This document shows positions 6,669 through 54,075 of a stretch of 64,000 nucleotides of DNA, piece by piece (position 1 is the stretch's first letter; each line of letters opens with the position of its first letter). The stretch is from the NCBI GenBank assembly GCA_951406725.2, contig OX597832.1, positions 62,124,001 through 62,188,000 on the forward strand, in the 5' to 3' direction. The DNA is from Octopus vulgaris (lineage: Eukaryota). The notes under the pieces were generated by a model that saw nothing but the letters and a program-made list of their open reading frames with translations, did not search any database and was not told where the DNA came from. Made by a program: the position numbers and the translations under genes.

Positions 6669-6824
6669 TATAATGAAATTTATTTACATTATTTACAGTA
6701 CTTACATTTGACGGATATTTGTCTTCATCTTGTTAACACATTTCGGCTGCTACACCCTCCAGGCTTCGTCAGGTTTTCTGGGGAAATATCGAACCTGGGT
6801 TCTCATTCCTAAGGTATATTTCGA

Positions 6825-10394: not shown

Positions 10395-11156
10395 TAATAT
10401 TAGGGAGTATATCCAAACTTTCAGGGAAAAATTAGTTTTAGGATAAAAATTTCACAGTATATATATATAAATTAAAGTAGATAAAACCACTATTAGGTAA
10501 TTCAAACAGTGATAGACATAAACCAAAACATAAAAAACAAAAAATGAATATAATTAATATAATATATAATATATATATAAAATATAAAATTTAAAATTTA
10601 AATTATAAAAAATTTTTAATTTTTAAATTTATATTTTTAAATTTTAAATTTTTATTTTGTTTTATATATAACTAACCAAAAGGTATAAAAAAAGTTAAAT
10701 GTAATATAATAAGTAAAAACACTACGTACGTTTCATGGCTATAATTCAATTCGAATTACAATTAAGTTTAAATTCAAATGAAAATTCTAAATTAAAATTT
10801 CAGTCAATCTTCAGGTTAATGATAACAGTTAAATAAATAAGCAAATACAGTTAAACAATATTTTAAAGAAATAAATAAAATAATAATTTTTTTCTTATAA
10901 AGAAACTCTATTATCTAAATTAGAAACTTAAACATTAGGATTATGTCATACAACCCATTTATTTTGTTAAATATTAATTTTTAAAGTAAAAACATAGATA
11001 GAAAAATGTATTTATCTATTAAGATATAATATGGCTTTCAAAACATAATAAACTCCCGATATTGTATATTATATTACTTATATTTGTTTTTTGTTTTTTA
11101 TGTTTTGGTTTATATCTATCACTGTTTGAATTGCCTAATAGTGGTTTTATCTCTAA

Positions 11157-11160
<4 letters not shown>
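10395..11160 (-). mobile_element. Non-coding Penelope pLTR-type element with HHR motif and inverted 5' arm
   Basis: 10468-10570 is the reverse complement of 11061-11160. The minus strand at ~10720-10818 reads ctgaaga-ttgact...(AT-rich loop)...agccat-gaaa-cgtacg-ta. Related element at 36527-37013. Confidence 0.7.
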
Positions 11161-11220
<60 letters not shown>

Positions 11221-11225
11221 ATATA

Positions 11226-11769
11226 GGCATGGGTGCTCTCGATTATTGGGATCGCCTTAAAGCCTTGAAACTTTACTCCCTCCAGCGTCGCCGTGAGCGG
11301 TACATCATTTGTACGATGTGGAGGATATACTGCCAACTTTGCCCAAACGACCTTAACATTAGCTTCAAGTTTCATTCAAGACTGGGACCATGGGCCATAC
11401 GTCCACTGCCCAATTCACGATTCCAACATACATGTACACTGCAACATAATTTCTTTTCCTCAACAGGCCCTGCCCTATTTAACATTGTCCCGAGGGAGAT
11501 CAAAGAGGAAAAGGATCCCATCAACTTTAAACGGAGTTTGTATAGATTCCTTCTAAGAATACCAGATACGCTACCCATAATTGGATGCAACTCACCCAAC
11601 AAGAACTCACTACTTGAATAAAACTTGATACAACTCACCCAACAGGAACTCACTATTTGAACAAAACTTGACTTAAAGAGGATTCGAATAATCCTATCAG
11701 GTGGTGCTATTAAGTTAGACACGGCCTGGACCAATCTTTGGTCGAAACATATCTAAGTTTATCTAAGTT

Positions 11770-34408: not shown

Positions 34409-34448
<40 letters not shown>

Positions 34449-34455
34449 TGTTATA

Positions 34456-35714
34456 TTGGGGGCAGCCATCGGTATTAGTATCGCTGGTGATGTGGCCAAC
34501 CTCTTCATGGTATGGTGGGACAGAAGGCTTAAAGAATGCCTACTGCAGAAATCCATACTCGTAAACATGTACTCTCGCTATGTTGATGATATCAATATAG
34601 TAGTAAAGGCACCCCCACAAGAGAGTACTGTTGATATAGTAATAGAAACTAATACTATGGAGAGCATCCAGCAAATAGCTAACTCCATCCACCAGAGTAT
34701 TAAGGTCACAATAGACTACCCCACTAAACACCCCAACCATAGACTACCAGTACTAGACACTGAACTCTGGCTAGAAATTGTGAAAAATAAAACCCAAATC
34801 CTTCATTCATACTATGCAAAACCTATGGCCTCAAAATACCTGATCCACTGGAACTCAGCCATTGCGGGCAATGCCAAATTCAATATTTTGATGGCAGACC
34901 TCGTCAGAATAATGAGAAATGTGTCACGCATGTGCGAGCCTACAGAATTAAAGAGACACATACAGTATTTCATTCACCGCATGCAGTTCTCAGGTTACAG
35001 CCATAAAGAAAGGATCAGAGTATACAAAGGAGCCATGAAGAAATTTGATAATATATTATGTAATGATAGGAATGGGATTTGCCCACTCTATAGGAACAAG
35101 TCATGGAACACTATAGAAAGGACAAAAAGAAAATAGGGAAGGCCAACTCTTGGTATGATAGCCATAAATACCAGAGTGTCATGTTCGTTGACACCACCCC
35201 TGGAGGTGAACTAGCGTACCGCTTTAGAAGGACCCTAGATAAACTTAAACTAAGAATTAAGGTTGTTGAAAAGCCAGGCAACCCTATCAGATCTATAATT
35301 GGTAGAAGCTATCCTTTTAGTAGAACTCTCTGTACGGATAACTATTGCACTGTATGTAGATTTAGCCCACAAACGAACTGTAAAGCCAGAAATGTGGTCT
35401 ATAGTATAAGATGCATAGAGGGACGATGCAGTAACAAGACAGTAACATACGTAGGGGAAACTGCAAGAAGCATTGGTGAGCGGGTGAATGAACATTGGAG
35501 ACAACTCAAGGAAGGTAAAAGCTCATCGATTCTGTACCAACACGCCGAACAAGAACACGGGGGATCAATCAATAACATAGAGATTAAGATATTGTCCACA
35601 CATAGAACAGATGCAACAATTAGACAAATTACAGAAGCTACACATATAATAGAAAATAAACCTAGCCTGAATAGAAAACTAGAATGGAGCAATAGCGCAC
35701 ACCACAACATATGA
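34456..35714 (+). pseudogene. PLE reverse transcriptase (34456-35136) + Cys-rich linker and GIY-YIG endonuclease (35103-35714), split by one frameshift
   Basis: GAAIG..AG.VANLFM, YSRYVDDI, LPVLD; CTDNYCTVC; NVVYSIRC...[16 protein letters not shown]; RQITEA..I....PSLN. Confidence 0.9.
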
Positions 35715-36221
35715 CAATAGTGGATCCTGCAAACATAATAAATACACAGGTAATTAAAGAAATAGAAATGAATATCTATATATATGTGTATGTGTATATA
35801 TATGTATATGTATATGTGTATATATGTCTGTATATATGTATATATATATATGTATATGTATATGTATGTATATATATGTATATGTATATTCTTTTTTTTT
35901 TTTTTTTCGATTAGATTTATTATTATTATTACTAATATTGTTGTTATACATACATACAAGCATATGTAATGATAATAATGGGCGGATGTAAACACATGAA
36001 CAAAATTAGAACAAAAGCAACAACAACAAAAACAAAATACAAATTACAAGAATGTATATAACCAGAAGATACAAATATTACAGGTATCCCCCCCACACAC
36101 ACACTAAATAAACATAGACGCACATAGAGATATAAGCATGCGCAAATGAAGACATACAATAGAAATACAAAATGGCTGACGGTTAGTAAGGAGAGACACA
36201 AGTAAGTGAGAAGAAAACAAA

Positions 36222-36266
36222 GGACCACTGATGCGGTCACAGGAGTGTGACGAAAGAACTTTGGCC
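36222..36266 (+). ncRNA. HHR motif in the Penelope pLTR (A9 mutated in this copy)
   Basis: ggacca-ctgatgc-g-gtcac/gtgac-gaaa-g-aa-c-tt-tggcc; the sister copy at ~45905-45953 (-) has canonical ctgaaga-g-gtcac. Confidence 0.65.
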
Positions 36267-36441
36267 GAAATAAGATTAAGATTAATGTAAAAAATAAATA
36301 TCACTGAAGCAAAATAACACCAAATATATAGTGCGTGTGTTTTTATTGGCTAAACTGGCAATATGACCATTCCGAAATATAACAATATCTGTTTCAACAC
36401 ACGACTTCACATAAAAAATCTTGCACAACAAATATTTAAAC

Positions 36442-36526: not shown

Positions 36527-37011
36527 AATAATATTAAGGAATATTACTCGAAACATACTGGGAAAATTAAATTTAGTATTAAATCAAATTTCACAATATA
36601 AATATATAATATATATAAATTAGAGAAAAACCATTATTATTTAATTCAAACAATGATAGACATAAGCCAAATCATATAAAAGAAATAAAATATATGATAA
36701 AACATATATTTAGATCACAAAAAGTACATAATAATAAGTAAACAATATATAATAAGTAAAAAGAATACGTACGTTTCGTGGCTATAAATTCACTTCAATT
36801 CGAATTCGAATTAAATTTAAATTTAACTGTAATTCGAACTGAAGTTATAGCCACGAAACGTACGTAGTCTTTTTACTCATTATATAGTGTTTACTTATTA
36901 TTATGTACTTTTTCAGATGTAGATATATTTTTTCATATATTTTATTTGTCTATACGATATGGTTTATGTCTATCATTGTTTGTATTACATAACAGTGGTT
37001 TTTCTCTAATT

Positions 37012-37013
<2 letters not shown>
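36527..37013 (-). mobile_element. Fold-back pLTR-type element, same family as 10395-11160
   Basis: 36616-~36810 inverted against ~36820-37013; both arms carry the HHR 3' half gccacgaaacgtacgta. Confidence 0.8.
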
Positions 37014-37082
<69 letters not shown>

Positions 37083-37354
37083 GCATGTATATAATTTAAT
37101 AAACTGAAGTTAAGCAGTATTCAATTATCCTTTCACCCACTACAGAAGACTCCTGGAACTATTACTACCACTGGATTGCACAGAGTGAAATATGAAGGTG
37201 GACAAGCTTTATACTGTACTCTGTTACGTTCTTAACAGAATATAAACTATGTATGTATAGATATGTATATACCTCTCTATATATATTAATGTATACACGC
37301 TCGTATGTATCTATGTGTGTATATACATATGTATATATACATGTGTGTGTGTAT

Positions 37355-37610
37355 GTGTATTTGTTTGTAAAATGTAATTTGTTACTCCTAAATGTAACGT
37401 GGACTTTTGGCGATTTTTTCATCCCTCTTCCTTTTCTCTTGGAGTTACCCCTGTCTCCTGTTTTTGAAGAAGAGCTTTGCTCGAAACGTAAAACAACCAA
37501 TCTTTCTTTCCATACGTGAGCGTCTTATTAAAACTTTGCACGTAACACGTCCTCGCGTATTTGTTTTTTTCTTGCTATCTTTTCTTCAACGTAATTTTTT
37601 TATTGATTAT
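37355..37610 (+). mobile_element. Short HHR-bearing pLTR-like element
   Basis: 37459-37495: tgttt-ttgaaga-a-gagc/gctc-gaaa-cg-ta-aaaca. Confidence 0.65.
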
Positions 37611-38269
37611 ATATATATACATTGCTTCTAATATAAGTATATGCGTGTATGTTCGCCTGCGTCCACGTGTGTGTGTATCTATATGTATATACCTCTCTCT
37701 ATATATTAATGTATACACGCTAGCGCGCACACACTTTCACACACAGTCATACAGGCGCGTGTACACGAACACAAATGGGTACATTTTATCGAATGAGTCC
37801 ATCTTTTTGTTAAAAGTTGCATGTCGTTTGAGGGAGATTCGACTTGTAGCTAATTGAATGACGGCGCAGAGGATTGTTCGTTCTGATGCCATAGACAACA
37901 ATGGTTTCTTTTCTTTCTGCAGTAAAACGATATCATGGAATGAAATTCAGATATATTGCTTTATAATTATTGTCACAATTCCAGCAATTTTTGATCGACC
38001 CAGTGATCAATTGGTTCTTATTTCATCGATCCCGAAAGGTTGAACATCAAAGTTGGGCTCGGCGGATTTTGAACTCAGAACGTAAAGATGGACGAAACGC
38101 CTTTTGTCGGTACTACTCAGGTACATGGCACTAGTCAAATCAAATTCCGGTACTGTTGTTATAATGATAGTTGTGACCTTTTAATGATTTTTATCTAACG
38201 AAATCGGTTGTGTCTATGGTGTTGCAGAGCGGCCAGGATCGGTGTAGTCGACTCGGTTGATGTTTTATT

Positions 38270-38490
38270 GTGAATGTTTACGTTTACAATTTTGTTTACA
38301 AATTTGCTTTCCAGGATTCTTGATGTGAAATCGTGTGTTGAAACAGGTATTGTTATATTAAGGGATGGTCTTCTTCATTGTTTTATTTTATCTTATGTCC
38401 ATTGTCTGGAAATCTTTCATCAAACACCTGTGATATGTTCAGCGACTCTTCCATCCGACATGTGTCCTCTTCTGTGCATTCCATTTCATA
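38270..38490 (-). mobile_element. Solo pLTR related to the Penelope 3' end at 36170-36445
   Basis: 'gtgaaatcgtgtgttgaaacaggtattgttata' is the reverse complement of ~36378-36411; degenerate HHR ctgaaca-t-atcac..ttgat-gaaa. Confidence 0.7.
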
Positions 38491-39439
38491 TCTGCACAAA
38501 GAGTAATTCCAAGAAATTGGATTTCGAGCGAGTGATATACTGATAGATTCAACTTGGCAAATTGATCCATACGCTGCCTTGCAGTGGACCGACATTTTGA
38601 AAGATAATAGGAAGAAATGTGACGAGCCTCTATGTAAGAGTGAGCAAGAAATCCATTAATTCTGATGAAACAGTGACTGATGAAGTAGCGGAAGATAAAG
38701 CGGTGGGGGGGACAGGCGGAGCTCAACATTGAGTCAGAGGTGGATATATGTTGCTGAAAGTATTCATATCCATCAGTCGTGTAGCAGTTTATTATTGGAT
38801 GAATCTTTGCCATTTCATGAGATCTGCTTTGTACTAGTCCCAAGCAAGTACTACGCCCACTCATTATCTCGACTAGCTAGAAATAGGAAATAAATCTTCA
38901 TTAACTCTTACTAAAATGGCATGCCATATTGGAAAATGTAGCTCGCTGACAACAAGGGAAGGTCTGAGAAAGAACATTAATCAAATGGGCTTAAATGGAG
39001 TCTATTGGTATGAGACGTCCTAGCAACTATTTAGTTGGACTTTTCTTGATGAATATATCGTTTCATAAAGGGAATTTAGTGTTGAATCTAGAGGCACAAA
39101 CAATTACAACACTTGCATGGTAAATTGCCTAGCAAGAAATAGGGAACAAATATCCCTAAAATAATACCTTAAAACCATAAGAAAAAAATAGAGAAATAAA
39201 ATTGTACGCGGTACAATATGGACGTCGATATAGAGGTAATAAAACAGGTTGGTAATGGCAAGAACATTTTTCATTAAATATTTGCTCGATCGAGATTCAC
39301 TCAAATCTAATGAATGACATCGTCAAATAAAGTAGTAAATTCATTTATGACCTCACTGCCTCGAAAGTGTTAAATATGCAAATTGCTCTGTCTAATATTA
39401 GTGAATTTGTAAGTAAAGATTTGTGGATAGTTAAAGGTC

Positions 39440-40420
39440 AGACAAAGCTGTTGCCGAAGATCCCCAAAAGATTAGAAACGTACATACAAGCGTCGTTCCT
39501 GTTCTTTTATATTGTCTGTAAACATACTATAAAAATGAATTGTTTACAGTCGTTGTAACACCTAGTATTGACTAAAAAAAGAACCCTATCGATATGTTCT
39601 TTGGTGGGTGTATTTTTTGTGTGTTTGAGCAGAGTAAAATTTGTTGTCGTCTACTGACGATTTCTTCCAAAGGTGACAACACTCGTCCACCCTTTTTATG
39701 TTTATACATCTGTTGTAAACACGAGTCATTTATCACAGTTCTGGTAAGACACGGTGCTGATAAACAAATGTAAAGCTATGTTCAATAGAAAAAAAAAACA
39801 TTGCAAAGATTTATTGATTTCATTCCCCGTGTGTTTAAAGGCTGTGCAGAGCTGCTCTTGCTACCGAAGTTTGGAAATAAGTGCCGAAACGTACGTACAG
39901 TCGTTTTCACTATTTCTGTCGCCACACGTATAGTAAAGATGAATTATTTATTACAATCGTCATAAGACAGTGCTGGCTAATAAATAGATATAGTCATTAG
40001 TGTGCTAATAACCTCTGCCTTTAAGGCAGCTAGTTGTCAGAATCGTTAGCACGCCGGTTGAAATGCGAAGTGGTATTTTGTCTGGCTTTACATTCTGAGT
40101 TCCGCCGAGATCGACTTTGCCTTTCATCCTTTCGAGGTTGATAAATTAAGCACCAGTTGCGTACTGGGGTCTACCTAATCGACTGGCCCCCTCACCCAAA
40201 ATTTCGGGCCTTGTACCTAGAGTAGAGAAGAATAACCTCAGCGTTTGTTGAGAGTTAAAGTTGATGCGCTGCAACTGACAAAGATTTCAAAACGTGTCGT
40301 AACGTACATACTGCTCTCGCATCTTTTTGTTTCCTTACACGTATTATAAAGATGAATTGTACGTTATATAAGTCGTGACACACAGTGTTGCTTTTAAAAA
40401 TACTTAAAACCTGAAGACAT
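39440..40420 (+). repeat. Decayed ~200-bp tandem array, each unit with an HHR-like motif (retrozyme or tandem-pLTR-like)
   Basis: Cores at 39454, 39654, 39864 and 40275; shared downstream 'taaa(g/a)atgaatt...ac(a/g)gtg(c/t)tg' block. Confidence 0.6.
40023..40230 (+). mobile_element. SINE family A insertion with 16-bp target-site duplication
   Basis: TSD aataacctctgccttt (40007-40022) / aataacctcagcgttt (40231-40246). Confidence 0.9.
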
Positions 40421-41375
40421 ATTTATTCTATAGTACATTATATCAATGAAATAAAACATTGCTAACACACCAGTAATTTAATAAGAATATAGACTAGTGA
40501 AACTAACTTTCGCTTGCAGCTATGTTATTTTTAGTTAACATTTTAATTCTCTTTGGTTTCAAATATGTTAACACTAAATTTACTAAATTTACTAAATTTA
40601 TACAGCTTTTAGTCTGGAAGCTTATTGTTTCTGTCGATTTAGCATTCTTGCTTTCTAACTTCAACATCAAATTAAATGTTGGAAATAGAGATAAAAAAAA
40701 ATAATGCCATCTATTTGAAATGGAAAAAAAATTTAAGGGAAAAATAGAGAAAATAAATAACTTTTTTTCTTTTCCTAACAAATAAGTGATAACACGATAC
40801 GATCTCTATTGGCCATTGACAAAATTGATGAAGCGTTAAATTTGATATATCAAACGTAAGGTATTGTTTGAGGGTGACCTGTCTGCTCTGTGAAAGTCTC
40901 ATTATAAATAAAGATTTCCAGCTGGAAGAAGATAGTTTTAGTAGCTCAGACAACAAAAATAATGCGAACAACATTTGCGAATGAAGTTTTGTTCTATTCA
41001 AATGAATTTTGTTTTATTTATTTTGATGTGATATTTCAATTATTTAGTTTTATTTTCGAGACTAAATTTCATGTTCAATTGTAGTTTGATAATTTATACA
41101 AATAACTTGAATTATGTTTCTATTCCATTCAAATTCGAATGGCAATCGTTGCTTTCCTCCCGTGGCTTATAAAGAATACGTTATTATCATTATTAAAAGA
41201 TATCATTATCATTATTATTATAAAAGAAAACATTATCACCATCATCATCATCAACATCATCATCATCATCCACATCATAAGTATTATTGTTAGATTTTAT
41301 ATTATGAACTTCATCACTAGTCTTCTTCTTCTTCTTCTTCTTCTTCTTCTTCTTCTTCTTCTTCTTCTTCTTCTT

Positions 41376-41406
<31 letters not shown>

Positions 41407-41728
41407 TTCTTCTTCCTCTTCTTCTTCTTTATCAAGGCGATGTCCAGGCAGAATCATTGTCGCGGCAGAGAAAATACTTAGCGACATTTATTTCAGTCTT
41501 ATGATCTAAGTTCCTATTCTGCAGAAGGCCTGTAAGTTCATGGGTGGAGGTAAATCGAATTTAATCAACCCCAGTGCTCTACTGGTACTTACTTTACCAA
41601 CCCCGAAAAGATAAATTGCAATCTTGGCATCGACGGAATTTGAACTCAGAACCTAAAAACGTACGAAATAACGATTCTGCCCGTTCGTGGACACAGTCAC
41701 ATAAAATATTGTTGAACAATAATAGAAT

Positions 41729-42058
41729 GCAGGAGTGGATACGTGGTAAGTAGCTTGCTTACCAACCACATGGTTCCGAGTTCAGTCCCACTGCGTGGCA
41801 CCTTGGGCTAGTGTCCTCTACTATAGCCTTGGGCTGACCAAAGCCTTGTGAGTGGGTTTGGTAAACGAAAACTGAAAGAAGCTCGTCGTGTATATGTATG
41901 TATGTATGTATGTATGTATGCATGCATGTATATATGTATGTATGTATGTATGTATATATGTATGTGCGTGTGCATATGATTGTGTCAGTTTGTCCCCCCC
42001 CCCCACCATCATCGCTTGACAACCGATGCAGGTGTGTGTAAGTCTCCGTAACTTAGCA
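41729..42058 (+). mobile_element. SINE family B, 3'-truncated
   Basis: Matches the 12574 copy through 'ccgtaacttagc'. Confidence 0.85.
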
Positions 42059-42311
42059 ATGTATGGCTCTTGTTCTCTATCCCACAGAACAATATGTTTG
42101 CACCGAATTCATGTTCCTCCAGTACTCTTTTTTTTTAAAGAGGTAAATACCTGCTGCTTCGGACATGCGCTTAATGTCTGCGTCTGGGTAGCATTGTAAA
42201 TAATCTTTGTGACTATATCATGCTTCAGGGGCAGATAGCGTCTCGTATTTATGCATGTATGTATGTATGTATGTATGTATGTATGTATGTATGTATGTAT
42301 TATGTATGTAT

Positions 42312-43312
42312 GTCATTGTTCAGTTTTATTTCAATGTCTTTTGCCAATAGAGAAATAAATAGTTTCTAACCTAGATCCAAGGCTCTTTCATTGGTATTTC
42401 AACATTAACAACAGGGTATTTTTGTTTGTCTGTATTTATATGTACAATATATGTATGTATGTATGTATATGGACAAATTTGTATGTTCTGTTTCCTGAAT
42501 GTATTCTCATAAAAATAGTTGCATATCTAGACATGCTCATATATATTTAAATGATAACCTTCTGGAAATTTTTACTATGTATGTATGTATGTATGTATGT
42601 ATGTATGTATGTATGTATGTATGTATGTATGTATGTATGTATGTATGTGTGCATGCGTGTATGTACGCATGCGTGTATGTATGCATGCGTGTATGTATGT
42701 ATGTTTGTATGTATGAAAGTATATAAGTATGTTTCTATGTATGTATATATGAATGTATGCAGGTCATTATTCACTTTATTTCAAGATTCCTTGCCAATAG
42801 AGAAAGAACCGGTTTCTAACCTAGATCCAAGGTTCCTACATTGGAATTTCAATATCAACAACAGGGTTTTTTTGTATGTATGTATGTATATGCAGATTTC
42901 TATGTTTTATGTATGTATTCACAGAAATATAGCTGCATGTCTAGATATGTTTATATATATCTAAATGATAAACTTCTGGAAAGTTTTACAGATTTTTACA
43001 GTTCCAGTGATGAACTGGATCTGTAGTCTTCGAATTAGCCTTTACCTTTCTGCTTTTTTAGATGCCTAATTTCTCAAGATTGGTATTTAGGCAGTTACAT
43101 ATTCCAGGGCTTAAATAATTACAGGCATAAACCTGAACTTGTAATCTGGATAAAATTACTGCAGATTTCTCAAAAGTTCAGCATAGGCGTTCTCTTTTTC
43201 ATTGATCTTCAGCTTTATGTTAACGTCCACTGAGCAACTAATTTCCACAATTGTGCACAGTTTCTCTTCTCTATCCCAAATCAATATATCAAGTCGGTTG
43301 TGCCTATATTTT
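42312..43312 (-). mobile_element. Two tandem 3' ends (42312-42575, 42763-43312) of an RLE-type (R4-like) LINE embedded in (TATG)n
   Basis: Minus translation HNRLDILIWDREEKLCTIVEISCSVDVNIKLKINEKENAYAELL..FRFMPVII (PD-(D/E)xK-like); duplicated 3'UTR. Confidence 0.8.
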
Positions 43313-44549
43313 ATATATGTATGTATTTATGTATGTATGTTTGTATGCATGTATGCATGTATGTATGTTTATATAAATGTGTAAAGATATACTTTTAAAT
43401 AATTAGTGTTTTATAATGAAATCCCAGCTGTTATAGTTTAGAATAATTAGGTCGGTAAAGACGATCCCTGAATTCCGCTTGCGATAGCATGTAGAAATCT
43501 TATTGCCAAGAACGACAGAACTCGCGAGGAAAGAAAAAATTACAAAGTCAATTGACTATTTCTGAGTTGAATTTGTGTAACAAATGATCATATCTAAGAG
43601 CGTGTGATGAAACTAATTACAGCAACCTCAGCATGGAAAACACTTATTAACCTTTTAGAAATACACAATTAATAATTTATTAGTTGGTTGAAGGGTGAAA
43701 TTGTCGTCGCAATATCAGGAGGATTTTATACACTCTACTTACTGCATAGGTATTAGAGTAACTCCGTAAATCAATTCTTAGAAGACCACTTGATGTCTGG
43801 CAATATAGTAACTAATAACCAAGCAGATGTATAAGGAAAATTCCTCTCAGGGTAGAAAAACTTATAATTAATAACGCACAGCTGTCCAAATTAAAATCTC
43901 ACAACGCAGGAATCTTAAACCGCGTCATTCTATTCATCCTTCATGTATGGTGAAACCAATTCAATTTAGCAAATCTAAATGAAGTTCTAACTGAGAGCAC
44001 TGGAATACTTACAAACTACTGTTCAGGCATCGTCCCCGAGTGTCATAGAATTCACGTCGAATGACAGTGATTGTATGGCTTATCAGAAAGAATAGTTAGA
44101 ATATTTCAAGATAGTCTTTCAGTATTTCTGTTAATTCTGGTGCGAAATACACTGTCGCTTCTATCGCAAAAGTCAAGTGGTTCTACGTTATTCTGTATGA
44201 CAGCAAAATCTCTCAAACGCCGTATTTGTCTTATTCGCCCTCATAAGATCTATAGTGGAAATAAGGATTTCAAATTTTGGCACTAGGCCAGCAATTTTGG
44301 AGGTAGGTTAAGGCAATTACATCAACCCCAGTCCTCAATTAGAACAGTAAAATTAAAGTGATTTCGCTACAACGGGGAGATGAGTAGAATGACACGGCTT
44401 AAGGTTTCTGTGTTGTTTGATTTGAATTGAGACATTTGTGGCCAAGAATTTCTGTTCTGTGAAGCAGTTTCTTTATTTATCTACTTGATTGTTGGTTACT
44501 ATAATGCCGGACATCATCTGGAATTTATTTTATCAATAATACAGTTCTA

Positions 44550-44919
<370 letters not shown>

Positions 44920-45074
44920 TATATATATATATATATATATAGGTGTGTGTGTATGTGTGTGTGTGTGTTTGTGTGTGTGTATGTGTGTGTGTGCGTGTGT
45001 GTGTGTGTGTGCGTGTGTGCGTGTGTGTGTGTATGCATATATATATATGTGTGTGTGTGTAGTATGTATGTATA

Positions 45075-45263
45075 TATAGGGAGAATTCACAAAAAGCAAA
45101 AGACGAAGTGAGGTGGTGTAGACAATAAACCGATGTATTAGTGTAATGCTCAGGAAGTGTATAAGTTTTTAACGTTTCGAGCCTACGCTCTTCCACAGAA
45201 AGGAACACAGAAAGAAATAAGGAGAGAAAATAAAGGATGTGTAGTGGCTAATGATCTATCATG

Positions 45264-45265
<2 letters not shown>
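45075..45265 (-). mobile_element. Short HHR-bearing element, A6U family (other copies 48230-48422 +, 50050-50200 +)
   Basis: cttt-ctgtgga-a-gagc-gtag-gctc-gaaa-cg-tt-aaaa. Confidence 0.7.
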
Positions 45266-45317
<52 letters not shown>

Positions 45318-45320
<3 letters not shown>

Positions 45321-45630
45321 CTATACAATATGTTACATTACTCGGTAGTCAAGATGAAACTCTGAGTTTCAGATGCCGAAGTGGAAATCCACAACACCAT
45401 CTCATCGGTTATCTGGCTATTTGAAAACGTTATGAAAAAATTATGAAAAAATAACGTTTTCAAATAGCCAGATAACCGAAGAGATGGTGTTGTGGATTTC
45501 CACTTCGGCATCTGAAACTCAGAGTTTTATCTTGACTACCGAGTAATGTAACATATTGTATAGATAAATTTCCTCTATTTACATAATATTGAGGTCTCTT
45601 TCTTTCTTTTGTTATCTTACCGTTTTATCA
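45318..45630 (+). mobile_element. Fold-back pLTR-type element (arms 45318-45433 / 45451-45566) with HHR
   Basis: 116-bp arms, two mismatches seen; the right arm continues ~60 nt; flanked by (TA)n. Confidence 0.9.
45470..45532 (+). ncRNA. Putative type-I HHR, U4C variant
   Basis: Stem I agataa/ttatct; core ccgaaga; stem II gatg..catc(+t); gaaa; ctc-a-gag; predicted GUU site. Confidence 0.7.
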
Positions 45631-45754
45631 ATATATATATACATACATATTTATATTTATATATATATGTATGTATTTTTGTATGTATGTATATGTATAT
45701 ATGGCCGCAGCTAAATGTCTGAAACGATTAAAAGTATAAAAGGAAGACTGACAG

Positions 45755-45990
45755 AACATATTTATTTGTTTTGCGAAATTCCTGATATTAAATCGTGTAT
45801 TGAAATAGATGCTGGAGTGTCATTTTGTTTTTGTTGCCGAAAAAACACACGCACTGCATATTCGCTCTTTACTCGAATGTTGTTGTTCTTACTCTATCTT
45901 AAGCCTATTGTCTGGAAATCTTTCATGACAGACCTGTGACCTCTTCAGCGACTTTTACACCCCATGTGTCTCCTCTTGTTCTGTTTACTT
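45755..45990 (-). mobile_element. Solo pLTR related to the Penelope 3' end
   Basis: Shares 'aaaaacacacgcact' and 'aaatcgtgtattgaaa' with 36330-36410 (reverse complement); HHR ctgaaga-g-gtcac-aggtct-gtcat-gaaa. Confidence 0.7.
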
Positions 45991-46992
45991 CATATATATG
46001 TATATGTATGTATGTGTATATATATGTGCATGTGTGAGTGTATATATGTATATACACATATATAAATACATATACTTATACACACTCATACACACACATA
46101 GACACGCACACGCAAACACACGCATATATATTTATATATATATATATACATACATATATATATACATATATATACATATATATGTATATATGTAAGTATG
46201 AGTGCACGTTTGTATGCACGTATGTATGTATCTATGTATAAATGAAATATATAATCATTTCTGTGTAAAAGAAAAACAATGTGCTGTAAGAATATTTGTG
46301 GTGATGCTTCAAGTTACAGAACCTGTCTTTGCGCACTGTTTATCTGTTCATTGTAGTAACAGTCAAACATCCATCAGAGCAGTTGTAACATTGTGCCGAA
46401 CGACGCTATAATTCACAAAATGATCTCATACAATAAATAAATAAATAAAGCGATAAGAATTTTAAATAAACAACCAACAAAAAGCTAACAAATATGGCAG
46501 ATGTCTAGTCTGATGCCTAATCTAAGATTATACGATAATTATGTATATGACTCTCATAATCCGTTGTGCAAAAGTCTGAACAGATTATCATCTGTCAATT
46601 TATCCATACACAGATATCTAATATCTTCGCCTGCATCTTGGGATGTTACCATCAGCCGCGTTCTCAATAAGCTTTGCTTGATATCATCTAGAAAATACCA
46701 TATCATTTCATGTATGATGAATATACGTGGTTATCTTACGGTATATCTAGATAAATCTTCGTCATGGTACTAGCAAGGTAATGGTACACATTTACGACAA
46801 AGATGCCATTTGCGATATTTCCACTCTGTTCTACCATTATTCCATGTATTAAATTTATTCTTTTCTTCAAAGATTTTTTTTTCCTGGATATTCCAATGTT
46901 GCAAAGTTCCAGTGTTCCGGTATTCCAAATTACGATAATAGAAGAAGATATTGCCGATAATGAAAGAGACCGTGTGCAACTATAAGTGCATA

Positions 46993-47024
<32 letters not shown>

Positions 47025-47444
47025 TACACACACACACACACTCACGCGAATACGCATGGATGTACATTTCGAGGTAAGTGTACATATGCAAACTTGTAAG
47101 TATATATATATGTGTCTATGTGTGTGTGTGCGTGTGTGTGCACTCGCAAGCGCATGCGTCTACATGTATAACTACGCGCGTATACACATTTAGATGAGTG
47201 TAGTTGTGTGTGCATGTGTGTATACACGTGTATTGATTATCCGATTGCACTACGACTACAGTTTCATTAGTATATTGCATTACAAAATGCAGGATTAATC
47301 TCTTTCTCTCTCTTTATATATAAATGTGTGTATATATGTATGTATATATATACATACATATATATATATATACACACACACATATATGCATGCATATTCA
47401 TATATACATGCATGCATATATATTTATATGTGTACTTATATATC

Positions 47445-47492
47445 AAAACTGTCCGACGAACGGGAACGTGAAACTCTCAGTCACAGTATTTT
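47445..47492 (+). ncRNA. Putative compact type-I HHR, U4C variant
   Basis: actgt-ccgacga-acg-ggaa-cgt-gaaa-ct-ctc-ag-tc-acagt: all three stems pair; predicted GUC site. Confidence 0.7.
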
Positions 47493-47574
47493 GTGAAGTT
47501 TTTGTGATGTTTTTGTAGCCTATTTCGAGTAATTTTGTTTCTAGCATGTTTCACATTTATGTGCGTATGTTTGA

Positions 47575-47608
<34 letters not shown>

Positions 47609-47681
47609 ATACATATATGTATGTATGTATATATATATTTATATATATATATATGTATATATATATATGTATGTATGTATG

Positions 47682-47721
<40 letters not shown>

Positions 47722-48424
47722 GAAACACACATAAACATTCGTACATATATACATGTGTTTTGTGTGTGTATATGTGTGTATGCGTGTGTGAGTGTGTGTG
47801 TGTGCGCGCGCGCGAAGAAAGACTGTAAACATAAATTTAAAACAATGCAGGTCCATTAATAAATGCACCAACTTGAAACTCGAGACACTAAATGGAAAAA
47901 AGAATACTATAAAGAAATGATATAGTCTCAACACATCATTGAATTAGTCGCTCTCAAATGTAATATATAGACCCAAATATTCGTGGTACTCCGTCGGTAA
48001 CGACGACCAGGGTTCCAGCTGATCCGATCAACAGAACAGCCTGCTCGTTAAATTAACGTGCAAGTGGCTGAGTACTCTACAGACACGTTCACCCTTAATG
48101 TAGTTCTCAGGGAGATTCAACGTGAAACAGTGTGACAAAGCACGCGCACCTTCATGTGGGTTCACCATTTCTTTATTATCTCCCTTTCTTCTAACCTCTT
48201 CTTTCAACCATTTCTTCTAACCAGTCCCCATACTCGACTACTAAAGATACAGTTTTTTTTTCATTTTCTCCCCGTTTGTTCTCTCTTATTCCTTTCTGTT
48301 GAAGAGCGTAGGCTCGAAACCTAAAAGACTTTTCCTTTTTCTCAAGCGTCAAACTCATACATCTGTTCATTGTTCATACACCTTTCTTCGTATTTTGTTT
48401 TTCTATAAATTGCAACTATATATA

Positions 48425-48541
48425 CTGTTTTTCTTTAAACCTGATACTTATTCTATCGATCTTTTTCGCCAAACCACTAGTTTATGGGGACATAAATACA
48501 TCAGCACTAGTTATCAAATGGTGGTGAGGAAAAACACACTA

Positions 48542-48575
<34 letters not shown>

Positions 48576-48755
48576 ACAAATACTTCCACATATATACGAG
48601 GGGCTTCCTTTAGCTTACGTCTACCAAATCCACTTACAAGACTTTGGTGGGCTAGAGCCTATAGCAGAAGACATTTGCACAAGATGCTATGCATTGGGAC
48701 TGAACCCTGACCCATAAGGCTGGGAAGCAAGCTTCTTGCCATACAGCCACGCCTT
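48425..48755 (-). mobile_element. SINE family B copy
   Basis: Reverse complement of the family B head and body (ccatacagccacgcc, gaagacatttgcacaag, ctaccaaatccact). Confidence 0.8.
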
Positions 48756-48800
48756 TGTTTTTGCATGCTTGTATATATGTAAATATATATATCCATATAT

Positions 48801-48895
<95 letters not shown>

Positions 48896-49800
48896 CATAC
48901 ATACGCACATAAGCAAGAAGATGTCAAACGTGGGACATTATGTATGCACCAACAATATTGATCTGCCGTAACCCCCACAAAGACAAGTTCACACAATCAC
49001 ACTCTGCGACAGCAGCAACTCATGTACACACATATACACACACATGCACACACACATGCACGCACACACCTGCAAACAAACATAAGCCGACATTAATAAC
49101 AAGAACAAAAGAACCACACATGTCCACACTTATACATAATCTCACTGCATTTCTTTTTACTCATAGCTAATCTCTTCGTGTGTGCATGCGTGTGTCACCC
49201 TCTCTCCCTCCGCCTCTCTCTCATGCTCTCTATTTCTATCTCTTTGATTATCTCTCTCTCTCTCTCTCTCACTCTCTCTCGCTCTGTCGATCACCATCGT
49301 TCACTCTCTCTCTCCCTCTCTCTCAGCAATATGTAAGATGCATATCATTTGGTCAGTCACGTAGCAGATGCTGTTTAGGCTCACATGGATAATCGGAGAG
49401 GCGTTGTTCTAATGCATATTTATAAGGGTGGCCGGCTGTCTTAAAGAGTATACAATGTTGGCTATCTGCTTGGCTTCTGTCTGTCTGATCGCCTGACCGG
49501 TTGGTCGGCCTGCTGGTTTGCGGGCTGGTTGAGCATCCGAATTGCCTCCTTTCTGTCCGGATGGATGGTCGGTCAGCTGGTTCAAATTTTGCTGCTGTGA
49601 TGTTGAGTAGATTTAATTATATTTTTCTTCTTCCTCATCCCAATGTCTCTCTGTCCATCTGTCCGTCTGTCGCTCTCACTCTCTCTCTCTCTTTCTCTCT
49701 CTCTAGCTCTCTCTCTTTCTCTCTATCTCTTTCTCTATCTCTGGATATGTGTGCGTGTGCGCTTCTCTGTGTATATATGGTATATATGTATATAAAAACA

Positions 49801-49854
<54 letters not shown>

Positions 49855-49940
49855 ATATATCTATCTATATATATATATATATGTATGTATGTATGTATCT
49901 ATATATATATACATATATATATAATATAGATATATATGTG

Positions 49941-50019
<79 letters not shown>

Positions 50020-50408
50020 CCAATAATATATATATACGCACATATATATATTTTCTATTTTCTATTCTCTCTCCATGTATATTTATGTGTTCCTATTTGT
50101 TGAAGACCTTAGGCTCGAAACGTAAAAGACTTTCTCAGTTCCCGACCGTTAAACTAATGCATCTTTTTTATTTTGTAAATTTTTTTCTTTTATAAATTGT
50201 GTTGGTGCTACTATTAAGGCGGTTATCTGGCAGTACTGTAAGCATGCCGAACAAAATGTATATTTTGCTCTTTGTTACTCTCTTATTTCAGATTCCGCCA
50301 AAGATAACGTTGCCGTTCATCGTTCCTGGGATCAATGGAATAAATACCAAATGATAATCGGCGTAAGTGACTATCCATCTCCTCCCTCATTGTGCCTATA
50401 CTAGAAAG

Positions 50409-50482
<74 letters not shown>

Positions 50483-50841
50483 CAAAATTAAAAGAAGAGT
50501 GTCATTGTTATTAAGTGAACGATATTTCGACATCTTGTGTGTCTTCAACTGGTTCAAAAAATAAATTTGTCAATCTACTTCATTTTGTTTAATACATAAA
50601 GGATTGAGGTAATTCCTCTTCTTTGGGTGAAGACTCGCATATATACGCCCTTAAAACTGGGAAACCGGCCCTTATGAATCTAATGACTCGTGAATGAACT
50701 TTATTCTTTTTTTACAATAATTTTGAAGTTCTGTTCTTAAAATATCCACGTTCTTCTTAAGTATTCCACATATCCTTATATAAATTTGTTATTTTCTTGT
50801 TTCTTCGTTATTATTTCCACTTAGAAGGAAACATTCATGTA

Positions 50842-51728
50842 CAGGGTGCAGCAAAATGATCTGACACATTTTAAGGTTTAATAAAAGTAAAATAAATTAA
50901 TGATTGAAAAGTGTGTTTGCATTTTTGAAATTTACATTTAATGCTATTTTCTCTCGGTTGTGGACATATGTGACATTTTCTTTCATTTTGTTTCCAGTTG
51001 CTAACATGAATTGGATGGGCGAGCGTTGCGCTTTCATTGCGGAAACGATTGTGAAGAACAACGAATCCGTAACTGCAACGCGAAGAGCGCTCCATGCTCG
51101 CTTCAGGCTTGGCAGACATGATCCCGTACCTACTCGAAATTCTGCAGCAGTAGAATTCGGCATTCGGGATGCGTACTTCTTCGAAGAAGACAATGTTACA
51201 TTGACTGTGAACTCTGATCGATATTGTGTGATGCTACAGATTTTTCTGAAACCCGAACTGAATGGACTTCACGATAAGGACACTGTTTGGTTTCAATAGG
51301 ACAGGGCAACAGCCCACACTTCTCCACATTCGATTGGGATTTTGTGAGAGATGCTTCCCTGTCATTTGATCTGACTGCACTGTGACATCGGTTAACCCGC
51401 CCGATCACCTGATTTGAACCCGTGCGATATTTTTTTGTATGAGTACCTGAAATCAGAGGTATACACTCATCACCCTCGAACAATAAAATGATGCCACTCC
51501 ACATGAAATGACTCGTCGAGTTTTGGACAACTTTCGTGAAGGCCTTCGACAGTGAGTGGACACTTGCGGCATCCACTTCACGGATTAAAATTTTTTAAAT
51601 CAAACAAAACAAAATGGCATTATATATACATTTATAAAAAAAGACAAAAAAAACACGCGTCTTTCGTTTTTACTTTAGTTTGCATTTATTAAACAAACAA
51701 ATATGTCGGATTATTTTGTCATATCCTG
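50842..51728 (+). mobile_element. Internally deleted rosa/DD41D Tc1-mariner transposon
   Basis: TA TSDs; TIRs cagggtgcagcaaaatgatctgacacattt / caggatatgacaaaataatccgacatattt; WFQ*DRATAH...PARSPDLNPCD with 41 codons between the two Ds. Confidence 0.85.
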
Positions 51729-52761
51729 TATTTACGTGTTGTTTTATCGCACTTAGCGGTTCCCTTCTGCTTACTTCAACCTGTTTTCCTACTCTGTTAT
51801 TATTTTACTATAATTTTCAATTTGAATCAAGCCCCTTCTTTCTTGTATGTAGGGTAGGTATATTCTATCTCTATCAACTCTGAGGCGGTTACTTTGGAAG
51901 TCTATTAGTAGTTTCTCGTTATTGAGTTCTTTTTCATCTCCCCAAACTTTTCAATCCACTTAACTTCCCGTATATCATACAGAAGCTATGATTTATGGCT
52001 GGGCTGGCTAGCGTATCGTATGAAACATAAAAGAAGTCATTACTATGAAAACGTTGATTATGATTCTTCGCCCGTAATAGAAGTATAACGTGCTTGTTGA
52101 CACTCTCTAGTATAGGAGATAGACAAGAAGAATCACGTTGAAGTTTTGTTACACTCTGTTAAACAGTTTTCGGAGAACAATTATTTATGAACCGAAGAAA
52201 ATTATTTTCCATATAGAGATTTTTATAAATTTTCTTAACTCGGTTGAAGTGAGTAAAAATACCAAAATATAAATATACAAAAACGATCCATAAAAAGCGT
52301 CAAGCAATGTAACTCCAGGTGATTTCAAATATCATAGGAGACATTAGAAAAAAATATCTTAGTTCAATGTAACTTTTATTAAATATAAAATTATATTGAA
52401 GTTTTATGAGGCGTGAAATAGTAGGTAACGATACAATATAATGGCGGCGTGTGTTGTTTGTAATATTTTAGACTTCCCCTTGGGGGTCCAATTCTACTTT
52501 CATTGTTATGGTGTACGTTACACACCTTATTGATACATAAAAGTTACCTAATAATTATTATGTCCTATTATATCAGCTATTAATAATAAAGTATACAAGA
52601 CATACGCCCGAATGGTTATTTTGAACACACACATATATATATATATATATCCATGTATGTATATGTATATATATACATACATGTGTGTGTGTGTCTGTGT
52701 ATATATATACATGCACACACACATACATATGTATACATATATTTATGTATATATATACATA

Positions 52762-52802
<41 letters not shown>

Positions 52803-53703
52803 GCAGAAATGTATATGCATATAAATATATATATATTTAAAGAGAGAGAGACAGACACATATACGTATACATATACATGTGTGTGTGTTTTTGTGTGTGT
52901 ATGTGTGAGTGTATGTGTGTGTACGTATGTGTATATATGTCTATGTGTCTATGTGTATGTGTGTGTATGTGTGCGTATGTGTGTGTATGTGTGTGTGTGT
53001 GTCTGTCAACCGACATATATATGGTCCGTGCATTGCTCAATGTGAGTACCTCTCGTTGCCTATACGTGTTTGGCCATATGAGTGTATACGTGTACATCTG
53101 TGTGTGCGTGTGTGTGTATGAGTGTGTGTGTGCGTGTGTGTGTGTGTGTGTTCTAGCTAGATTTTGTAATCATGCGTATAAGTGTTTTGGGTCGGAATGT
53201 TCAAACCGCTCCGCAATCTCGCACCTTTTGTATGATGTTACAACGGGACATCTGGAGTAATATTTCACTCCCTTTCTCTGCCTCTTTCTTCCTTCCCTCT
53301 TTCTCTCTCTCTCTCTCTAGCTATCTATCTTTCTCTCTAGGTTTCTCTTAGCCTCATTTTACCAAGCTGCGTAAATGAATTTTAGTTGATGAAACTGTTA
53401 GAGGAAACTACTCTGATATTGATTGCTGTTAACCCTAATTCACGGGGTCCAGGCATGTATCACATTGTTTAATGTAGTATTAAGTGAAAATTACACGTAT
53501 CTGCGTAATATGCAGCCTCTTACATGTTAATAAAGTTAGCAGAAAATTCATTTGATCGAAAATCTGATTTAAATCAATCACCGAAAAGGATTACTGAAGG
53601 AAAGTGTTTCACCCTGGGTTTCGAAGCCCTACCTCCTATCAATGTAGTTGTTTTTGTTCACAAGGTTCACGATAGTGGCAGGACACTTCTAAATTCTCTT
53701 ATA

Positions 53704-54075
53704 GGCGCAGGAGTGGATTTGTGGTATGTAGCTTGCTTACCAACCACGTGGTTCCGGGTTGAGTCCCACTGCGTGTCATCTTGGGAAACTGAAAGAGGCT
53801 GGTCGTATATGTGTCTGTGTGTGTGTGTGTGTGTGCGTGAGAGAGAGAGAGAGTTTGTGTGTGTGTATGTTTGTGTGCTTGTGTTTGTTCCCCCACATCG
53901 CTTGACAACCGATGCTAATGTGTTTACGTACGCGTCACTTAGCGGTTGAGCAAGAGAGATCGTTAGAATAAGTACTATGCTTACAAAGAATAAGTCCTGG
54001 GGCCGATTTGCTCGACTCAAAACCGGTGCTCCAGCATGGCTGCAGTCAAATGACTGAAACAAATAAAAGAAAAGG
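53704..54075 (+). mobile_element. SINE family B with internal deletion
   Basis: Head and 3' end match the 12574 copy; the segment between 'cttggg' and 'aaactgaaaga' is missing. Confidence 0.85.

Follow-up and report, generated by a model that had tools for sequence, protein, structure and literature searches.

The 64-kb stretch of Octopus vulgaris DNA that we analyzed (hereafter, the window) is AT-rich and dense in microsatellites. On its plus strand, from position 39420 to about 40395, it harbors four head-to-tail units with a GC content of 34.5% to 38.3%. Unit 1 (39420-39622, about 203 bp) carries a relic hammerhead, with its core 7-mer at 39451-39457 (C3>T and A6>C), a GAAA box at 39475-39478, and the predicted cleavage residue, H17, at 39486. 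Unit 2 (39623-39829, about 207 bp) is the most diverged: the core 7-mer at 39654-39660 is intact, the box at 39678 is disrupted (G12>A, A14>C, and U16.1>C), and there is an A-rich stretch of about 25 nt that is absent from units 1 and 3. In unit 3 (39830-40022, about 190 bp once an insert in its tail is removed), the core 7-mer at 39861-39867 is altered (G5>A and A6>C), and both the GAAA box and the full palindromic helix III region, the latter at 39886-39897, are present. Unit 4 (40247-40395) can be traced over about 150 bp, with its core 7-mer at 40275-40281 (G8>A) and its box at 40299 (A13>T).

The first-pass annotation had described this region as an ancient tandem array of strongly diverged units, a claim to be given up if the units aligned no better than shuffled controls. 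With the insert excised, none of 1,000 dinucleotide shuffles scored as high as five of the six unit pairs, and 2 of 1,000 did so for the remaining pair (units 1 and 2). Local identity was 67% to 74% over 104 to 157 columns, with alignment scores of 41 to 78 compared to shuffle means of 21 to 25 (z, 4.0 to 12.7) and to scores of 17 to 36 for nine flanking 200-nt controls. Furthermore, nhmmer profiles built from any three units recovered the fourth one at E values of 2.6e-9 to 2e-16. The tandem array of homologous units is real, and the claim withstands the shuffle test set for it. From end to end, unit identity is 45% to 66% in four MAFFT runs and 53% to 65% in an anchored alignment.

No further copy of the unit was found in the window (next-best match to the unit profile, E = 0.38), and a few short extra pieces were present in public DNA runs. 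Extension of the array past 39420 or 40395 was not significant (609 and 1,811 of 3,000 shuffles were as good, respectively), and neither was a fifth unit. A hammerhead-like 7-mer at 40411 was also rejected, as it is off the unit phase and lacks helices. A dimeric higher-order structure (unit 1 with unit 3 and unit 2 with unit 4) was not supported either, the corresponding site pattern being seen at one site per alignment in four MAFFT runs and at 5 of 14 sites in the anchored alignment. The best candidate for a duplication flanking the whole array matched at 9 of 11 positions, which is chance level. Over the array, there was no stop-to-stop frame of at least 120 amino acids and no match to the Penelope profile.

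All four core 7-mers named in the first-pass annotation are found where it had placed them. Those of units 2 and 4 (39654 and 40275) are also in the right register, whereas ccgaaga (39454) and ccgaagt (39864) lie 3 nt off the homologous position in units 1 and 3. In a MAFFT alignment of the four heads, the homologous 7-mers are TTGCCGA (39451), CTGACGA (39654), CTACCGA (39861), and CTGACAA (40275), and the shift is due to the A>C change common to units 1 and 3. After correction of the register, the proposed spacings of 200, 210, and 187 bp become 203, 207, and 190 bp. The head alignment is then nearly ungapped, the core 7-mer is followed by the GAAA box after 17 to 18 nt in all four units, and units 1 and 4 are colinear and gap-free over 62 nt, 41 of which are identical. 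Over the four cross-pairs, the corrected register gave 40 of 96 identities compared to 33 of 96 for the original one; for unit 3, the preference for the corrected register is modest.

When read by plurality over the four units, the head displays the hammerhead core, a single additional nucleotide behind A9, the G10.1-C11.1 pair, and U16.1-H17, together with a palindromic GTAC loop within a near-palindromic helix III region. Helix I comprises 4 bp (GCTG/CAGC) and relies on a tied G/A column; the plurality as a whole is drawn from four sequences, with 24 of 161 columns tied. It restores the core because the lesions lie mostly at different positions in the different units. We evaluated this layout with a descriptor built from the features of Penelope minimal hammerheads given in PMC4209133, in which one broken palindrome pair was allowed. 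The descriptor had been relaxed after the failure of a stricter version requiring C15.2-G16.2; this strict two-pair helix III test failed because the plurality at G16.2 is an A, two units having an A at the CpG position. Among 100,000 column shuffles searched on both strands, 2,773 (2.8%) were as good for the core alone, 80 for the core combined with UH, the palindrome, and G10.1-C11.1, and 3 for the full descriptor including the 4-bp helix I. A 16-position degenerate motif, whose GTAC loop was derived from the array itself, was found in the window with at most two mismatches only in units 1, 3, and 4 and in one arm of a separate inverted repeat. The plurality, but not the single units, shares with the minimal hammerheads of Penelope pLTRs the core, the extra nucleotide between A9 and 10.1, the G10.1-C11.1 pair, the palindromic 15.2-16.2 and loop 3, and a short helix I of 4 to 5 bp (PMC4209133). 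The plurality head is thus laid out like a type I hammerhead of the Penelope type, and we infer, with good support, that it descends from an ancestral ribozyme.

None of the four units has an intact core. Nine of the 48 core letters are wrong, corresponding to two or three substitutions per unit among 12 core positions, and residues G5, A6, G8, G12, A13, and A14 are required for cleavage. The proposal of one hammerhead per unit is hence valid for a relic layout but not for an intact motif. The Rfam hammerhead models gave no match at E values up to 10 in 37000-43000 or 39400-40450, nothing in Rfam reached the gathering score over the whole window, and the minimum-free-energy fold contained a hammerhead in none of the four units. 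Helix II forms at best five interrupted pairs, with 60% of the cells paired in a register picked after seeing the data. The predicted pairing amounted to 58.5% of 41 cells compared to 24% to 43% in slid controls, a lead that is expected because the structure was read from the same sequences. Neither pairing nor covariation exceeded that of shuffles (122 and 179 of 500 were as high, respectively). Core positions departed from the plurality in 18.8% of cases, compared to 24.2% for all other positions (permutation p = 0.24); conservation of the core does not surpass that of the remaining unit, and there is no sign of selection. The array is predicted to be catalytically dead and, since none of its units retains an intact core, is unlikely to give rise to circular RNA.

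The tail of unit 3 is interrupted by a SINE-like insert (40023-40234, plus strand) with a GC content of 48%. It is flanked by a target-site duplication, whose 16-bp left copy (40007-40022) is identical to the right copy (40231-40246) at 14 positions; the last four bases of the insert overlap the right copy. The first-pass annotation had excised 224 bp here as a SINE, and rightly so, since the duplication flanks the insert and removal restores the unit. The insert has 12 other matches within the window, 70% to 87% identical, and 41,658 to 53,778 records per public DNA run, the depth being concentrated in its three bins; it formed the depth peak in every public run compared. Its end at 40234 has loose ends, with hundreds of contigs continuing into A/T-rich tails. 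Size, copy number, duplication, and A/T-rich tail all point to a SINE. Contigs from three DNA runs of three studies (X2, X4, and X6) connect the array to the 5' part of the insert and the 3' part of the insert to unit 4, and the insert is therefore present at this site in all three. One presumed RNA run (X13) matched only the three insert bins, which has no bearing on expression of the array.

The region 39240-40022 is nearly identical in public DNA runs under four organism labels. We rejected a young high-copy family of the unit: in three DNA runs, array depth was within a few-fold of that of the orthologous contig, compared to 10^5 to 10^7 over the insert. This holds for the pieces listed, a further 159,934 having been crowded out by the insert; moreover, depth is not copy number, and contigs are no proof of absence. 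Between 40370 and 40549, depth goes up several-fold in all three DNA runs, which suggests that the right flank, too, is repetitive. In single contigs of X2, 39384 is joined to 40427 (22-nt side) and 40483 is joined back to 39363, by short joints of 80% likeness. If real, these joints would mean that about 818 bp, or four monomers, had been inserted into a host repeat. Over 38480-41150, the orthologous contigs differ by about 1% to 4% to the left of about 39360 and, between the array and 41150, are almost free of substitutions; this divergence step near the left end of the array resembles a haplotype boundary.

The Penelope ORF pair nearest to the array ends 3.7 kb upstream of it and is the sole match in the window to a profile of 78 Penelope sequences. 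This Penelope-like element (34444-35714, plus strand) is 5' truncated behind a (TA)n tract and carries RT-like and GIY-YIG parts in two frames; its ORF fragment 34444-35133 shares 98% identity with an 803-amino-acid protein from O. vulgaris. The C-X4-C-X2-C linker, a motif described in PMC8557442, suggests an element of the Neptune/Nematis type. About 510 nt past the ORF stop, a hammerhead-like motif (36219-36285, plus strand), in which helix II comprises 6 bp and A9 is replaced by C, is probably the 3' pLTR of that ORF. Further downstream lies a head-to-head inverted repeat (36609-37020, centered at 36816), the arms of which are 81% to 84% complementary and each harbor a hammerhead-like head and a GAAAC-GTAC-GTA box. 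It resembles an inverted pLTR pair and shares nothing with the array unit beyond the box. Its head probably recurs in a third copy at 10723-10780 on the minus strand.

Two related dispersed repeats, at 6772 and 44662 (both on the minus strand), have complete CTGANGA...GAAA cores and downstream sequences that align (score, 66); they represent a younger hammerhead-bearing family. Hammerhead-like cores of other families were found at 45948 (-), about 38445 (-), 61555 (+), about 37463 (+), and 1086 (+), the last within a 24-nt two-copy tandem, and 38378-38471 matches 45883-45977 at 80%. The open frames at 50871-51594 and 11157-11752 look by eye like decayed transposon fragments and matched no Pfam family at E values up to 0.01 (two frames). 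When 11 other hammerhead-adjacent stretches of the window were compared with the unit bodies, none was significant (at the lowest, 10 of 300 shuffles, in 44 comparisons), and no related pLTR or ORF ties the unit to a particular Penelope family. The relics in the window thus indicate that the genome is rich in Penelope-type ribozyme relics, the parent of the array unit not being among them.

Taken together, the locus is a decayed, noncoding array of four units of about 200 bp, which probably derives from a Penelope-like pLTR, was likely once endowed with one self-cleaving type I hammerhead per unit, and is now predicted to be dead. In this scenario, a pLTR-derived monomer would have given rise to a short multimer, each unit of which bore one minimal hammerhead. 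In the ancestral transcript, the palindromic helix III regions of neighboring units could have paired to form a double hammerhead, and cuts after H17 in each unit would have released monomers of about 200 nt. These could have been circularized and reverse transcribed in trans by a Penelope RT/GIY-YIG protein. Such a driver does exist in the genome, given the RT/GIY-YIG ORF pair and the other hammerhead-like cores of the window. A cycle of cleavage, circle formation, and reverse transcription in trans has been proposed in PMC4209133 and PMC7229834, and it is by analogy with it that we attribute cleavage, circularization, and retrotransposition to the ancestor.

The array would then have decayed, likely neutrally, by about 0.16 to 0.37 substitutions/site per unit (half of the pairwise JC divergence of 0.32 to 0.74), an estimate that assumes identical units at array formation. 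The SINE-like element would have inserted later, about 0.07 substitutions/site ago: the duplication copies differ at 2 of 16 positions, i.e., about 0.07 per copy, and the insert differs from its other copies at no fewer than 14 places in about 212 nt, 13 by majority (JC, about 0.065 to 0.07, indels excluded). In O. vulgaris, PMC13282606 describes a Penelope-like and LINE wave at JC 0.2 (56 My) and one of SINEs and LINEs at JC 0.065 (18 My). The ages of the array and of the insert are near those of these Penelope-like and SINE waves, which is suggestive only.

The tandem might also have arisen by another route, namely, local amplification, through unequal crossing-over, of a solo pLTR fragment that contained one hammerhead. 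The result would be a minisatellite that at no time acted as a multimeric retrozyme producing circles. This alternative shares the ribozyme origin with our best explanation and differs only in the route to the tandem. Local pLTR amplification is a described route to such arrays (Discussion of the preprint 10.64898/2026.07.22.740005) and would agree with an array that has neither a flanking duplication nor defined ends, with the A6>C change common to units 1 and 3, and with the 20 to 21 private changes in unit 2 compared to 6 to 7 in unit 1. The site patterns are uneven as well (14|23, 8 sites; 13|24, 5; 12|34, 1), which fits stepwise duplication, but they rest on 14 sites and vary with the alignment. 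Moreover, the pairwise identities fall in a single band (53% to 65%, anchored alignment) without a clear nearest-neighbor gradient, as expected for one multimer insertion followed by independent decay. We regard local amplification as unlikely but as the main rival, and the site patterns do not separate it from the rolling-circle insertion of a multimer.

The first-pass annotation had also raised the multi-pLTR head of a full element. The array would in that case form the multi-pLTR terminus of a Penelope-like element that was formerly complete, with the ORF deleted or decayed past detection. The motif does have Penelope minimal-hammerhead features, PLEs carrying tandem minimal hammerheads are noted in PMC7229834, and partial tandems are described in PMC8557442. 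However, no Penelope RT/GIY-YIG remnant adjoins the array. In a six-frame search of the window, the 78-sequence profile, which represents one clade, matched only 34456-35708, the next match (E = 0.46) being located elsewhere, and that ORF has its own hammerhead-like motif at about 36229, which is unrelated to the unit. This part of the annotation was thus not upheld, and we find such an origin quite improbable.

Could the locus be an ordinary decayed minisatellite with hammerhead-like letters arising by chance? The frequency of the core alone in column shuffles (2.8%), the lack of an Rfam match, a covariation signal, or a hammerhead fold, and the loosening of the descriptor after the stricter one had failed would all speak for it. 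On the other hand, only 3 of 100,000 shuffles equaled the full descriptor, a number that rises to 80 if helix I is left aside. In addition, a separate repeat family of the window (36855, plus strand; 36777, minus strand) also has a hammerhead-like core followed by the GAAAC-GTAC-GTA box. Chance is accordingly a highly improbable explanation. Finally, we give almost no credence to selection on the locus as a transcribed or regulatory element whose units diverged while functional: two predicted pairs changed on both sides and within the array the orthologous contigs of three studies differ little (X4, 4 other letters in 825 nt; X6, 0 in 200 and 0 in 357 nt), but 271 of 500 shuffles matched the both-sided changes, every unit has core lesions, and the low divergence is not array specific because the right flank outside the array varies just as little (0 other letters across 422 to 950 nt in all three DNA runs).

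The decayed, Penelope-derived array resembles several known systems. With the metazoan non-LTR retrozymes described in PMC7229834, it has in common a head-to-tail, noncoding monomer in the range of 150 to 450 bp, a low GC content (<45% to 50%), one type I hammerhead position per unit, and a mollusc-type genome. Those retrozymes form dispersed multilocus families, sometimes with a flanking duplication, and yield monomeric linear and circular RNA. Unlike them, the array has no intact core, its units are 53% to 74% alike, and its motif, as read by plurality, would have had a helix I of 4 bp and one nucleotide more behind A9 in place of canonical helices (helix I, 6 bp; helix II, 4 bp) with loop-loop contacts. 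Its earlier reading as a retrozyme array is supported insofar as the locus is a fossil hammerhead-bearing tandem, but the motif reads as the Penelope-associated type (PMC4209133) rather than of the canonical 6-bp/4-bp type (PMC7229834).

According to PMC4209133, the minimal hammerheads of Penelope pLTRs are predicted to work as a dimer. The array differs from these pLTRs in having four copies at a period of about 200 bp instead of two pLTRs around an ORF, and in having no adjoining RT/GIY-YIG. Its helix II forms five interrupted pairs at best (60% of cells), compared to the 7 to 8 bp typical of the Penelope type. Also comparable are the pLTR-derived animal retrozymes of Li, Clavereau and Pollet (10.64898/2026.07.22.740005), short arrays likewise proposed to derive from PLE termini; by that account, 75% of the families have seven units or fewer, and the 35 genomes include no mollusc. 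The preprint terms an array active when at least two consecutive units contain a complete hammerhead, compared to none of four here, and no matching PLE terminus was found within the window. Given the lack of any intact hammerhead, we do not class the array as an active retrozyme; nor, since no ORF adjoins it, do we assign it to a full PLE. By analogy, its mode of action would be, or would have been, that of a non-LTR retrozyme equipped with a Penelope-type ribozyme. It is of a known kind.

Hammerhead-bearing repeats derived from Penelope-like elements have been described from cnidarians to vertebrates. Among the titles and abstract openings listed for octopus hammerhead ribozymes and cephalopod retrozymes, none dealt with the subject. 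The words "hammerhead" and "ribozyme" are absent from the main text of PMC13282606, the repeat annotation of O. vulgaris published in 2026, the supplement or repeat library of which may already contain the unit family. As it stands, the array matters little, being a copy of a known kind that is predicted to be dead. It does provide a stratigraphic example, with an old array and a younger insert with its duplication, and could serve as a starting point for searching the whole genome. We are doubtful of a bolder proposal, namely, an undescribed cephalopod retrozyme family in which a heterogeneous tetramer, with units that diverged in a compensatory manner while still cleaving, was inserted in one step into an older repeat, and of which living Octopus relatives make circles of about 200 nt via a Penelope-type minimal hammerhead. 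Such a live family, if true, would extend retrozymes to cephalopods and test minimal Penelope-type hammerheads as circle drivers.

The core-plus-box pattern was also found in sequence collections, at 4 viral and at least 115 metagenome loci. Among the matches listed, a helix II of at least 4 bp (strict contiguous count) was present at 17 of 119 loci, and most of the 119 are thus due to chance or decayed; 3 of the 119 combined a helix II of at least 5 bp and a helix I of at least 4 bp with the GAAAC-GTAC-GTA box. None of the loci among the matches listed fits the unit profile (best E value, 0.15; full flanks for 80 loci) or matched the Penelope profile at E values up to 0.01. In two metagenome loci (L053 and L115), hammerhead cores occur in pairs, with 208 nt between the two cores and one core on each strand; one has a 6-bp helix II and a GTAC loop like that of the array.
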